Of a DNA stretch of 64,000 nt, positions 1 to 6,000 are shown one piece after another; the stretch's first letter is position 1; each line of letters starts with the position of its first letter. Position numbers: made by a program. Origin of the DNA: Escherichia coli (GTDB lineage Bacteria; Pseudomonadota; Gammaproteobacteria; Enterobacterales; Enterobacteriaceae); NCBI RefSeq assembly GCF_013315695.1, contig NZ_CP054353.1; one strand, 5' to 3'.

Positions 1-3000
1 CTTTAACCCGTCACAACCACATCACACCTGTTTTCACTTTTATCTTCTGTCTTCAGAGGTATCCCATTATGAAAATCATCACCCGTGGTGAAGCCATGCG
101 TATTCACCAACAGCATCCTGCATCCCGTCTTTTTCCGTTCTGTACCGGCAAATACCGCTGGCACGGCAGCACTGAAACGTATACTGGTCGTGAAGTGCAG
201 GATATTCCCGGTGTGCTGGCCGTGTTTGCTGAACGCCGTAAGGACAGTTTTGGCCCGTATGTCCGGCTGATGAGCGTCACTCTGAACTGAGTCAGTAAGG
301 GCATTCTGATGAGCAGAATTATCACCTCCACCGTGTATACACTGCATGAGCTATCCTCCACCGCACAGGAAAAAGCCCGCGACTGGTACCGTCAGCATCA
401 TGCTGACAGCAACTGGTATGAAAACGTGTATGAGGACTTCAGGGAGGTCTGAGGCATTTTCGGAATTGACCTCCGCCAGCGCGTTTTCCGGCTCAGCAAC
501 GGCAGGTTTATGGAAGAGCCGTGCATCTGGTTCAGCGGATTCTGCAGCCAGGGGGACGGAGCCTGTTTTGAAGGGCGCTGGCACTGGCAGCCAGCGACAC
601 CCCGGAAAATCAGGGAATATGCCCCTCAGGACCGTGAGCTTCATCGTATCGCGGATACCCTGCATGCGGTGCAGAAACGTAACTTCTGGCAGCTTCAGGC
701 TGAAATCAGTCACCGGGGACGTTACTGCCATCCGTACAGCATGGATATCACCGTCACCCGGAACAGTCCGACTGGTCAGGCAATGACAACCGATGCGGAA
801 GCCGCTGTCAGCGAAGCCCTGCGCGACCTGGCCTTCTGGCTGTACCGCCAGCTGGAAAACAAGTACGACTGGCTGACCTCAGACACCGCTGTGGATGAGG
901 CCCTTCTCATCAACGAATATACCTTCACCGAAGCCGGTCTGCGCGCCGGCTGACCCGTCATCGTTAAACTATCATTCACCGATTTTCTGTGAGGATTTTA
1001 TCATGTCGGACACACTCCCCGGAACAACGCTTCCCGACGACAACAAAGACCGCCCCTGGTGGGGGCTGCCCTGCACCGTGACGCCCTGTTTCGGCGCCCG
1101 TCTGGTGCAGGAGGGTAACCGGTTGCATTACCTTGCAGACCGCGCCGGTATCAGGGGCCGGTTCAACAATGCGGATGCATACCATCTGGACCAGGCTTTT
1201 CCACTGCTGATGAAACAACTGGAACTCATGCTCACCAGCGGTGAACTGAATCCCCGCCATCAGCATACCGTCACGCTGTATGCGAAAGGGCTGACCTGCG
1301 ATGCCGACACCCTCGGGTCCTGTGGTTACGTTTATCTGGCTGTTTATCCTGCGACCGAAACGGAAAGTAACCCTCCGGAATAGTCTTCTGCTCCGGCCTG
1401 GTGCTTTCTCCACGCCACTTTTCCATTTCTTATATCTGCATATCAGGAAAATCTTCAGTATGAAAACATTACCCGACACACACGTACGGGCGGCATCGCG
1501 CTGCCCGTCTCCCGTCACCATCTGGCAGACACTGCTCACCCGACTGCTGGACCAGCACTATGGCCTCACGCTGAATGACACACCGTTCGCTGATGAACGT
1601 GTGATTGAGCAGCATATTGAGGCAGGGATTTCACTGTGTGACGCGGTGAACTTTCTCGTTGAAAAATACGCGCTGGTACGTACCGACCAGCCGGGATTCA
1701 GCGCAGGAGCCCCGTCGCAGTTAATCAACAGCATTGATATTCTCCGGGCTCGCAGGGCGACCGGCCTGATGACCCGGAACAATTACAGAATGGTAAATAA
1801 CATTACCCAGGGCAAGCATCCGGAGGCAAAACGATGAAACTGGCCCTGACGCTGGAAGCTGACAGCGTTAACGTACAGGCACTGAACATGGGGCGAATTG
1901 TCGTTGACGTCGATGGTGTTGAGCTTGCCGAACTGATTAACGTGGTCTGCGATAATGGCTACTCCCTTCGTGTTGTTGATGAATCTGACCGGACCTCAAC
2001 AGACAGCATACCCCCCTCTGCTGCCCTGAGCGGTATACGCTGTAGTACCGCGCATATCACGGAAACAGACAACGCCTGGCTGTACTCGCTGTCGCATCAG
2101 ACGAATGACACCGGCGAATCAGAATGGATTCATTTTACAGGTAGCGGATATCTGTTACGTACCGGTGCGTGGTCATACCCGGTTCTGCGGCTTAAACGCC
2201 TGGGGCTGTCAAAAACGTTCCGCCGTCTGGTTGTCACACTTACCCGACGTTATGGCGTCAGTCTCATTCATCTGGATGCCAGCGCTGAATGCCTGCCGGA
2301 TTTACCCACTTTCGACTGGTAACCCGGAAATTCACAACATGAAATCATTAACCACGGAAACAGCGCTGGATATTCTGATTGCGTGGCTGCAGGACAATAT
2401 TGACTGCGAATCAGGGATTATCTTCGACAACGATGAGGATAAAACGGATTCAGCAGCACTGCTGCCCTGCATTGAACAGGCCAGGGAAGATATCCGTACC
2501 CTGCGCCAACTGCAGCTTCTGCAACAGAACAGGTGAGTCTTACTCACCAGACTTTATTCCACTGACGCCAGCCTGAATACGGCTGGCGTTTTCGTTTATA
2601 AACCAAAAGGAAAAACGATGATGTCAGATATCACAATCTCCCGCCCGGAACTGGTCAACGGACATACGGACGTTATCTGCTCAACCAGTATCCGCCACAT
2701 TCTGGCTGTACGAAAGAGTGCGCTGCTGCAAATCGACACACTTATCCGGCAACTGGCTGAAATCTCGGTACTGACGGAAAGCATTGGCGGTAAAACCGCC
2801 CGGGACTGGGCCATGAAACAGGATTTTCGCTGCGGCTGCTGGCTCATGGAGAAACCGGAAACCGCAATGAAAGCCATCACCCGCAATCTCGATCGCGAAA
2901 TCTGGCGTGACCTGATGCAACGTTCCGGGATGCTGTCATTAATGGATGCGCAGGCCCATGATACATGGTACCGCTCACTGGAGTACGATAACTTTCCGGA

Positions 3001-6000
3001 AATCAGCGAGGCGAATATCCTGAGTACGTTTGAACAACTGCACCAGAATAAGGATGACGTGTTTGAGCGAGGTGTGATCAACCTCTTCAGAGGTCTGAGC
3101 TGGAATTACAAAACCAATTGCCCCTGTAAATTTGGCAATAAAATTATCGTCAACAATCTGGTGAGATGGGACCGATGGGGATTGCATCTTATCACCGGGC
3201 AACAGGCAGATCGACTCGCTGACCTGGAAAGAATGCTGCATCTGTTCAGCGGCAAACCGATCCCCGACAGCCGGGAAAATATCATCATTCGGCTGGATGA
3301 TCACATCCGCTCCGTTCAGGGCAAAGCGTGCTATGAAGATGAGATGTTCAGCATCAGATACTTTAAGAAGGGCTCCGCACACATCACGTTCAGGAAACCA
3401 GAACTGGTTGACAGGCTAAATGACATAATTGCCAGGCACTATCCAAATGTATTAGCAGACAGGTAATGTGGCCTTGCCCCGCTATTAAACATGTCATATT
3501 TTTGCTATCATTGTGAAAATTTTTCGGAGGAAACATGACTACAAAAGACCGTATTCAGTCCCGACTGAACCGTTCAAAACGTTATGTGTTCACCCGGGAT
3601 GATTTCAGGGATATCGCTGGCTATGATCAGGTTGGCAGAGCTCTTCGTACACTGGTAAACGAAGGTAAGTTGATGAAAGTGGGCTATGGTGTTTACACCA
3701 AAGCCCGTCGTAACATCATCACTGGGAAAATCATGCCCGCAGCGCCTGGGGGCTCTGCTGCAGTAATTACAGAGGCCCTGGAGCGCCTGAATATCAGATA
3801 CCGTCTGGCAGGAGCAACGGAATGCTACAATAAAGGTCAGTCCACACAAATTCCTGTATCTCTGGGGATAAAAACACCTTCTCGATTTAAAAGAATGTTA
3901 ATAGTAGGGAAAAGTAAAATCAATGCCTGAATTAACATCATTATTTCCTGACGTTGCCGATGCACTGGATATTGAATCTGTCGCTATCGTCGAAAAAGAT
4001 TATTTTGTGGTTGATCTTTTAAGATTATTAAAAGAAATAAAACCAGAAACACATACTCTCGTGTTTGCAGGAGGTACCGCATTATCAAAAGCAGGTATCT
4101 CGCTAAACAGAATGTCAGAAGATATTGATATAAAGCTCGTGCCAACAGAGAACTTTATGCAAAATGGCAGAGACAAGAGAAGAAAAATTCGCAAGGAAAT
4201 CGTGCAAATAATCACGGATGTTATTCATAATTCTGACATTTTCAGCTTGGATAATGAAAACGCCCGTATAACACGTGATGAGTATCGTTATAACGAAATC
4301 TCGGTACGTTATCCCCAGACATTTGCACAAGTCCCCTGTCTTCGTCCATTTATTAAGCTGGAGTTGATGGAAAGCACTCTGCTGGAACATCCGGAAAGCA
4401 GAGATATTTATTCCCTTGTCACGGAGTTAACGGGTAAAGGTACACCTGTAACAGCATTCCCCTGTGCCACCATTTTATCCACTCAGGCTGAAAAGCTCAT
4501 CTCCATGATGCGAAGAACAGCAGCACATCTTCGTAATCCCGAACAACAGGATGATGAGTTTCTGGTACGTCACATTTACGACAACTACTGCATTGTCAGG
4601 GAAAAAGGTGTGAATGTTCCTGTATTGAAAAATTTTGTTCAGATATGTATTCAGCTATGGTAACCAGTACCCACAATTTTGTAGCTCACCAGTTGATGAA
4701 CTTAAGAAAGGGCTGGATGCACTCCGGGATTATCCTGTACACAAATTGCGCTTTCAACGATTTGTTAAACCGATGGTATTTGGTAATACACAGATTAACT
4801 GGGAAGAAGCCTATTCCAGTTTCAGACAAACAGCGCTAAGTGTTCTGACCAGCTAACAAACGCGTTAAGTACGATTCCACAATTCAGCATATCGAACCAG
4901 ACCAAATGATTACAGCAAAGCACAAAAAAGAGGGATTATAGCGTCAAAAGAATTCGAATTGCACATGGGGGCCTCATTGGTGGCCTCAAAAACAACAAAT
5001 ACAAAATAATCTATATAAAACAATTTGTTATACAATCAGTTTCATTCCGATTCCGGGCACCACTAATTCTTAAGAACCCGCCCACAAGGCGGGTTTTTGC
5101 TTTTGGATCTTTATATAAAATAAACTTGGGTGCATAACGCCATCAGGTCTTAAACACTCCCGAATCATCAATAAACATCCCCCGCTAACAAAACACAGTT
5201 CAGTTCACATAACATCCCTGTTATCCCACACATATCTGCTGGCCGAACGACGCCAGTGCGCGTACGGAGGCAAGAGCAGCCCTGCACATGGCAGCGCTTG
5301 TGGTAACCTGGTTTAATCCGGTGAAAGAGGCGTTTTACATGCATCTGCCAGCAGCCGGAAAAACCAAAAAAGTGGCGCTGGTTGACTGTATGCGTAAATT
5401 GCTGACCATCCTGAACGCAATGCTCAGAAAGAACGAAGAGTGAAATGAATCGTAGCATCATGTTGCTCCATAATTTTTACGTTCAAGACAGTTGATTATC
5501 GGCGCATATGACTCAAAAAGAGCCTGATGATTGCCTCTTTTCCATAGGCTCTTTCTCTGAAGTGAAGGAAGGCCCGGAAGAAAGCACTCGCTGGCATACG
5601 TGACTCCAGCTCAACCGGAGATAATCACCATTGTTATTTTTCTATTTAATAATAATCTCCTGAAAAATAGATATAGCAAAAATACAATCCGGCCAGATTT
5701 AATTCCGCATTCATTACCAGAAATAATCAACACTACAACTATTATATCATTCAATAGTCACCGCTAAAATTTTATTATTTTCCTCTTCTTTACATAGAAA
5801 TTATCAATCTGTTTATTATGCCGAATTTAAATAATTAATCACAAAACAATATCACCATTATTTGTGTGTTTTATTTATTAATAACATAGTCATACGTTCT
5901 TTTTTACAAGGAAATAATCAATTGATAAATTGTTTTTGGTATTAATAGTCAAGTAGGAAACATTTTAACAAATGATAAAAATCCTAAATTCCTTGTTCAT

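Follow-up and report, generated by a model that had tools for sequence, protein, structure and literature searches.

A CbeA/CbtA toxin-antitoxin module and its downstream genes at an island border in an Escherichia coli K1 strain, and their likeness to the leading regions of conjugative plasmids

The stretch of DNA analyzed here (hereafter the window) comprises 64,000 nucleotides of contig NZ_CP054353.1 (RefSeq assembly GCF_013315695.1) from an Escherichia coli strain with the K1 capsule, and our subject is a block of five genes at positions 1003–3466 that encodes a CbeA/CbtA toxin-antitoxin pair followed by proteins of the DUF5983, DUF957, and DUF4942 families. All five open reading frames (ORFs) are intact and lie on the plus strand. 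The pair belongs to the Pfam families of its K-12 counterparts, and the families of the three downstream genes are shared with the leading regions of conjugative plasmids, which adjoin the origin of transfer (oriT). Window bases 1–6200 are 100% identical to E. coli NZ_OZ547117.1, in which the PGAP gene names match, and the stretch is also identical to annotated E. coli K1 chromosomes. The gene order in NZ_OZ547117.1 runs from Ag43 through YeeR, IrmA, DUF905, DUF932, an antirestriction gene, RadC, DUF987, and a DUF8835 pseudogene to a YeeU-family antitoxin, a CbtA-family toxin, DUF5983, DUF957, and DUF4942, after which DUF6088/AbiEi, a frameshifted AbiEii, an IS110 remnant, and kpsF follow; the five-gene block is the distal (right-hand) end of a CP4-type integrative island, adjoining kpsF. 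An earlier note on this DNA, made from the sequence alone, described the block as common and known, and indeed part of the query is present in 5,370 of 5,426 complete E. coli genomes (median, three places per genome) and is already annotated. What is added here is a better frame for the uncharacterized genes, a negative result for methyltransferase and nuclease folds, and a covarying hairpin. Because the ratio of nonsynonymous to synonymous substitution rates (dN/dS; pairwise, 6–7 diverged copies) was 0.21 for cbeA, 0.14 for cbtA, 0.15 for the DUF5983 gene, 0.11 for the DUF957 gene, and 0.15 for the DUF4942 gene, all five genes, the small ORF included, are genuine and under purifying selection.

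The cbeA gene (1003–1383) encodes a type IV antitoxin of 126 residues, named YeeU family antitoxin by PGAP, which matched PF06154 with 182.5 bits (cut-off 27) over profile positions 1–100 of 101, and also matched the solved YeeU/YfjZ structures 2H28, 2INW, and 2JN7 (E = 5e-76, 2e-76, and 4e-41, respectively). Directly downstream on the same strand, cbtA (1460–1837) encodes a toxin of 125 residues that matched PF06755 with 202.5 bits (cut-off 25; profile positions 2–112 of 112), and we have no difficulty in recognizing the CbeA/CbtA pair that the earlier note had named. The 76-nucleotide spacer between the two genes (1384–1459) is poorly conserved between island copies and is the least conserved part of the block, with a mean pairwise identity of 0.43–0.47 against about 0.9 in the flanking genes. 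Residue 65 of the window toxin is phenylalanine (DAVNF65LVEKY), the determinant of FtsZ interaction that is conserved in CbtA, YkfI, and YpjF, while residue 15 is cysteine, as in YpjF and YkfI, where K-12 CbtA has arginine; the roles of F65 and R15/C15 were described previously (PMC5624674).

In the K-12 homologs, CbtA blocks FtsZ and MreB and thereby inhibits cell division and elongation, and CbeA counteracts this by bundling and stabilizing FtsZ and MreB polymers, not by binding the toxin. The window pair belongs to the same Pfam families, with scores well above the cut-offs, as K-12 CbeA/CbtA (YeeU/YeeV of the cryptic prophage CP4-44) and its paralogs YafW/YkfI and YfjZ/YpjF. The order of antitoxin and toxin, the non-overlapping spacer, and the RadC and DUF987 genes upstream are common to both, and the window toxin, which keeps F65, is ~64% identical to YkfI. 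The window pair gives no sign of a departure from the known type IV mechanism, by which it would presumably act. K-12 is not known to carry an intact YeeW, DUF957, or DUF4942 gene downstream of cbeA/cbtA.

The gene that follows cbtA (1834–2322) encodes a YeeW/Aec77-like protein of 162 residues with two domains, DUF5983_N (PF25638, 109.9 bits) and the C-terminal DUF5983 domain (PF19419, 80.1 bits), each matched above its cut-off of 27. DUF5983_N was found in the CbtA-linked form only. Because the start of this gene overlaps the cbtA stop by four nucleotides (ATGA), an overlap kept in every copy examined in E. coli and Klebsiella, translational coupling of the two genes is suggested. The next ORF (2339–2536), of 65 residues, goes by DUF957 in the PGAP annotation and by Aec78 elsewhere, and its family comprises 373 homologous clusters bearing one or the other name; it is 38% identical to a DUF957 protein of a plasmid leading region (E = 1e-9), and it has no model in current Pfam. 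The family AntiFam ANF00264, fused to or just after DUF5983, was reported to be consistently encoded next to cbtA/cbeA (bioRxiv 10.64898/2026.06.09.728211). The 65-residue ORF probably belongs to this family: it stands in the same place right after DUF5983 and near cbtA/cbeA, the names Aec77 and Aec78 are consecutive, and a current Pfam model is lacking in both cases. The window ORF differs from ANF00264 in that it has its own ATG 16 nucleotides past the DUF5983 stop, and therefore no frameshift is needed.

The last gene of the block encodes a DUF4942 protein of 281 or 282 residues, depending on whether it starts at 2621, as PGAP has it, or at the ATG at 2618, and ends at 3466. It matched PF13708 with 229.9 bits (cut-off 25) over residues 88–276 and profile positions 1–189 of 190. 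All three downstream ORFs thus belong to the families that the earlier note had assigned to them, and all its family assignments are correct. NCBIfam gave no match for any of the eight proteins tested. At 50% identity, the DUF4942 family falls into 2,132 clusters, and most of its members stand alone, with 260–290 residues. An AlphaFold2 (AF2) model built on a 70-sequence alignment, with a predicted local distance difference test (pLDDT) score of 88.4 and a predicted template modeling (pTM) score of 0.81, has long N-terminal helices followed by a small beta-alpha C-terminal half. Searches of PDB sequences with the protein and with the 70-sequence profile returned no relative. The earlier note had proposed to look in this protein for a methyltransferase or nuclease fold, and neither turned up: structural and profile comparison gave no similarity to nuclease folds (PD-(D/E)xK, HNH, and others), and the window protein contains no Rossmann-like S-adenosylmethionine-binding domain with motif I (xxGxG) and motif IV ((D/N)PP(Y/F)), and no FxTP, EPSAGxG, or NPPF motif. 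Judged by its sequence and its model, it cannot be a methyltransferase, because it ends after DUF4942, without those motifs and without a Rossmann domain. The possibility that DUF4942 is homologous to DUF5983, which occupies the same slot on plasmids, was considered and rejected (hhalign probability 0.1).

A minority of DUF4942 homologs are 460–468 residues long and consist of DUF4942 followed by a class I methyltransferase with the FxTP, EPSAGxG, and NPPF motifs, and the DUF4942 Pfam match in these fusions ranges from E = 1e-53 to 1e-60. Relatives of DUF4942 in PHROG, in phages, and in BFVD are annotated as DNA methyltransferases; gamma-type N6-adenine methyltransferases with an N-terminal DUF4942 (phrog_6263, e.g., the "DNA restriction methylase" of Pseudomonas phage phiPSA1) share this domain with the window protein at 24–26% identity, whereas the window protein is DUF4942 alone and has no catalytic part. 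The catalytic core of the fusions has no other target-recognition region. Because DUF4942 is the sole non-catalytic part of these NPPF fusions, which have no other target-recognition domain, we infer that it supplies recognition of DNA or of a partner, and that the stand-alone form would do so without catalysis. The most likely activity of the window protein would be sequence- or structure-specific binding of DNA or of a partner. DUF4942 is not an enzyme of known fold and is not tied to the toxin, and its domain fusions connect it with DNA adenine methyltransferases.

Between the DUF957 and DUF4942 genes lies a terminator-like hairpin (2564–2590, plus strand), identified by a terminator scan, folding, and covariation, which consists of a 10-bp G+C stem (GACGCCAGCC, a 7-nucleotide loop, and GGCTGGCGTT) and a U-rich tail (RNA fold z = −5.5). 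It is separated from the DUF4942 start by 27 nucleotides. Its stem is invariant and its loop variable in the E. coli copies. A similar hairpin, about 5–45 nucleotides upstream of the DUF4942 start, was found in 66 of 80 loci (L020–L099) from as many Enterobacterales species, whichever gene stood upstream. In an alignment of 77 hairpin sequences, 93% of cells pair, against 28–45% in slid controls, and seven of nine pairs show compensatory changes; two-sided changes occur in 58 cells, compared with 16.7 in shuffles, and none of 500 shuffles reached the observed value. This covarying hairpin before DUF4942 across genera is a new detail. With its G+C-rich stem-loop, U-tract, and conserved structure, it has what defines an intrinsic (Rho-independent) terminator in sequence and structure, and would be expected to terminate transcription. 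Because the 27 nucleotides between hairpin and start codon leave no room for a promoter, DUF4942 is probably expressed only by read-through of the hairpin from the toxin operon. A scan for sigma-70 promoters gave sites no commoner than in shuffled sequence. The DUF4942 genes of plasmids have no such hairpin upstream.

The same series of ten genes, namely DUF905, DUF932, KlcA-like antirestriction, RadC/JAB, DUF987, CbeA, CbtA, DUF5983, DUF957, and DUF4942, runs up to the island border both in the window and in four further E. coli islands at different chromosomal sites. In a sixth copy, derived from BL21, IS30 cuts off the upstream part and the copy starts at cbtA. Inter-island identity falls from ~0.9 to ~0.1 between 3433 and 3512, within about 30 nucleotides of the DUF4942 stop; the conserved block terminates at this stop, just before the AbiEi/AbiEii pair, where the earlier note had placed its end.

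The 80 species loci mentioned above (one genome per species; DUF4942 57–93% identical to the query; search with a 10-sequence alignment) are all Enterobacterales island-type copies; a search for contigs encoding two distant homologs returned short metagenomic ones only. Upstream of DUF4942 on the same strand, CbtA was found in 74 of the 80 loci, CbeA in 69, RadC in 64, DUF5983 in 35, and DUF957 in 20, counts that are inflated by common descent, these loci being the closest relatives of the query. In about half of the loci, CbtA is followed, after about 130 nucleotides, by DUF4942. Judging from these counts, DUF4942 is the constant partner of CbtA, and DUF5983 and DUF957 are optional inserts. 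A tRNA gene on the opposite strand was found 106–306 nucleotides past the DUF4942 stop in E. coli O145 and in 12 of the 80 loci, which makes DUF4942 the last gene of the element. The view that the three downstream genes travel with the toxin therefore needs to be divided. It is right for DUF4942 in the chromosomal island subfamily, in which CbtA is its near-constant upstream neighbor, and does not extend to DUF5983 and DUF957, which are missing from most of these loci, nor to any of the three families at large, which all occur on plasmids without CbtA.

A search of PLSDB with tblastn found full-length DUF4942 homologs (32–38% identity) on 4,364 plasmids, 3,987 (91%) of them conjugative, while CbtA was found on 66 plasmids and DUF5983, mostly as the C-terminal domain alone, on 207. 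The DUF5983, DUF957, and DUF4942 families are not toxin-specific, because they are found on plasmids without CbtA. On IncI1 and IncK plasmids, the DUF4942 gene is called ydiA. On an IncK2/Z plasmid, DUF4942 is the gene of a psiB-psiA-ardA array that is nearest to mobA (nikA)/relaxase, in the same orientation; on IncL/M (pOXA-48-like) and IncFII plasmids it stands among JAB, DGQHR, Hha, DUF1380, antirestriction, and ssb genes that point to mobA/traI; and on a Pseudomonas IncP plasmid it lies alongside a cytosine methyltransferase, ssb, and DUF932. Taken over these four plasmid types, its neighbors include psiB, psiA, ardA, klcA, ssb, JAB, DUF905, and DUF932. MOBP plasmids of Enterobacter, Citrobacter, Edwardsiella, and Serratia carry the C-terminal DUF5983 domain, DUF932/945, and in one case DUF957 in the same oriT-proximal slot, with no CbtA. 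The plasmid homologs are thus placed as leading-region genes are: adjacent to oriT, with the relaxase on its other side, and oriented toward oriT.

DUF4942 and DUF5983 have already been listed as leading-region-enriched families (PMC11541004). The larger DUF4942 family in that list has 2,171 members, a false discovery rate (FDR) p of 0, and a median position of 1 from oriT (Samuel et al., 2024, Supplementary Table 1; PMC11541004); it ranks 24th among the enriched families and its median position is the nearest to oriT (PMC11541004). A second enriched DUF4942 family has 551 members, and a DUF5983/Aec77 family 618 members with a median position of 2, while DUF905, DUF945/932, and KlcA rank 2, 3, and 9 in enrichment (PMC11541004). 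The island series thus shares DUF905, DUF932/945, KlcA/ArdB-type antirestriction, JAB/RadC, DUF5983, DUF957, and DUF4942 with the leading regions of IncI/K, IncL/M, IncF, and IncP plasmids (PMC11541004). In both settings all genes point in one direction, and DUF4942 or DUF5983 stands at the extreme end, which is nearest to oriT on plasmids and nearest to the island border here. The two differ in that no oriT, relaxase, ssb, psiB, or single-strand promoter was found with the island block, and in that plasmid DUF4942 is only 32–38% identical and occurs there with neither CbeA/CbtA nor the island-type hairpin.

The explanation that we favor, with modest confidence, is that the locus combines a standard CbeA/CbtA module with a leading-region-type establishment set, to which DUF905, DUF932, KlcA-like, and RadC also belong, and that DUF4942 is a non-catalytic recognition protein. 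The predicted type IV operon would comprise, beyond cbeA and cbtA, the DUF5983 gene, coupled to cbtA in translation, and DUF957, and past the hairpin that resembles an intrinsic terminator DUF4942 would be reached by read-through. The ten-gene series from DUF905 to DUF4942 would correspond, on an island, to the leading region of a conjugative plasmid, in which small "establishment" genes, all pointing one way, would be made early in a new host and protect and stabilize the incoming DNA. DUF5983, DUF957, and DUF4942 would accordingly act as putative establishment or anti-defense-type factors, not as parts of the toxin mechanism.

Several observations weigh against this explanation. No oriT or relaxase was identified in the window or in the 15 kb upstream, no scan with oriT models having been made, and the island copies share no non-coding element past the DUF4942 stop; a conserved oriT just downstream of DUF4942 was considered and rejected, since inter-island homology ends at the stop codon. 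PADLOC matched the AbiE pair alone and has no model for DUF5983, DUF957, or DUF4942, and full-text literature searches found no functional study of these three or of yeeW. Leading-region genes are not all induced on plasmid entry (PMC12672017). The tight adjacency of CbtA and DUF4942 (74 of 80 loci, a count inflated by common descent) and the ATGA overlap that couples DUF5983 to cbtA could alternatively mean that these genes are functionally tied to the toxin.

Such a tie is the core of a rival explanation, which we consider unlikely, that the downstream genes are extra toxin-antitoxin components (a regulator, a chaperone, or a second antitoxin) of a CbtA module with many parts, which would adjust toxicity or make it depend on a signal, for instance phage infection. 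In its favor, besides the adjacency and the overlap conserved in E. coli and Klebsiella, are the restriction of DUF5983_N to the CbtA-linked form, the treatment of CbtA and DUF5983 as a pair in a toxin-antitoxin survey (PMC10790755), and the consistent position of ANF00264, fused to or just after DUF5983, beside cbtA/cbeA (bioRxiv 10.64898/2026.06.09.728211). However, more than half of the CbtA-DUF4942 loci lack DUF5983 and DUF957, and plasmids that have no CbtA carry DUF4942 (4,364 plasmids), the C-terminal DUF5983 domain (207), and DUF957, whereas CbtA itself is on only 66. The conserved terminator-like hairpin moreover stands between the operon and DUF4942, and the K-12 pairs CbtA/CbeA, YkfI/YafW, and YpjF/YfjZ operate as two-gene systems (PMC5624674, PMC5371832).

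The fusions with NPPF adenine methyltransferases, and the abundance of orphan methyltransferases in the same leading regions, lend themselves to another view, that stand-alone DUF4942 is one half of a split DNA methyltransferase and provides target recognition for a separate catalytic subunit, methylated incoming DNA then escaping restriction. We think this improbable: within the island block, and on those IncK and IncL/M plasmids that were examined, DUF4942 has no methyltransferase gene beside it. A leading-region N6_Mtase of 276 residues on an Enterobacter plasmid was considered as a catalytic half split off from the fusions, and was rejected because it is unrelated to their catalytic domain; that plasmid has DUF5983, not DUF4942, in the oriT-proximal slot. 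It is very unlikely, in our judgment, that DUF4942, alone or with its neighbors, forms, like the adjacent AbiE pair, an anti-phage or anti-plasmid defense cargo of the island, notwithstanding a divergent copy between hsdM and mcrBC in an E. coli immigration control region, the position of AbiEi/AbiEii after DUF4942 in the window, and the clustering of defense systems, too, near island oriTs. PADLOC gave no match to it, the AbiE pair is frameshifted in the window and does not belong to the conserved module, and the main context of DUF4942, the conjugative-plasmid leading region, is enriched in counter-defense rather than defense genes.

Islands of this kind (TAI) are reported to carry oriTs near which defense and anti-defense genes cluster (bioRxiv 10.64898/2026.01.13.699239), which speaks for the explanation that we favor. 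The establishment-set explanation can be taken further, as a speculation that we hold to be possible though doubtful: the right ends of CP4-type islands may be working leading regions of oriT-bearing, helper-mobilized islands, in which DUF4942, the gene closest to oriT on thousands of plasmids and the last one on the island, would recognize its target without catalysis and serve as a first-entry establishment or anti-restriction factor. It would descend from the N-terminal half of NPPF adenine methyltransferases or be ancestral to that half, and its dose would be set by read-through of a conserved attenuator-like terminator after the toxin operon. DUF4942 is one of the largest uncharacterized families in the first-transferred DNA of resistance plasmids, and if it is true that it helps incoming DNA survive, this would bear on how resistance plasmids and pathogenicity islands spread.

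Some further occurrences of these genes may be recorded. In E. coli PSS-16 (NZ_AP027713.1; locus L002, 6798–7631), a lone divergent DUF4942 gene (66% nucleotide identity) lies in the immigration control region, between a type I hsdM disrupted by IS3 and mcrBC, with no CbtA nearby. In E. coli W619 (L005, 7066–7218), a DUF4942 remnant of 153 nucleotides adjoins a tRNA-Arg gene; it resembles the scar that a lost island would leave, with the DUF4942 end as the part that remains. In Yersinia rohdei, Y. similis, and Y. proxima (L023, L024, and L029), the CbeA-like match is nearer to DUF4942 than the CbtA-like match, which points to inversion of the toxin-antitoxin order or to rearrangement of the module. 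On IncI-like MOBP plasmids, a small opposite-strand helix-turn-helix gene precedes the oriT-proximal DUF4942/DUF5983 slot (e.g., L012, 5536–6648, and L006, 8131–8382; L017, 3667–3924, and L018, 2992–3261), and may locally regulate the genes that enter first.

Around the block, the region between DUF987 and cbeA (309–953) holds an ORF interrupted by an internal stop, which PGAP calls a DUF8835 pseudogene and another record labels "antitoxin of toxin-antitoxin stability system"; neither half matches current Pfam. Downstream of the block (3535–4856), AbiEi (DUF6088; PADLOC AbiEi, E = 3e-52) is followed by a frameshifted AbiEii (ORFs 3923–4663 and 4635–4856). Because AbiEii is frameshifted, this abortive-infection pair, which is outside the module common to the islands, is probably inactive here. 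An Rfam scan of 1–6300 gave nothing credible, its sole match being a sub-threshold P9 at 5038–5097, which a strong terminator-like hairpin at 5071–5099 overlaps. A remnant of an IS110-family transposase is found at about 5261–5443, and a very A+T-rich segment (5500–6216, G+C about 0.31) upstream of kpsF marks the junction between the island and capsule region 1.

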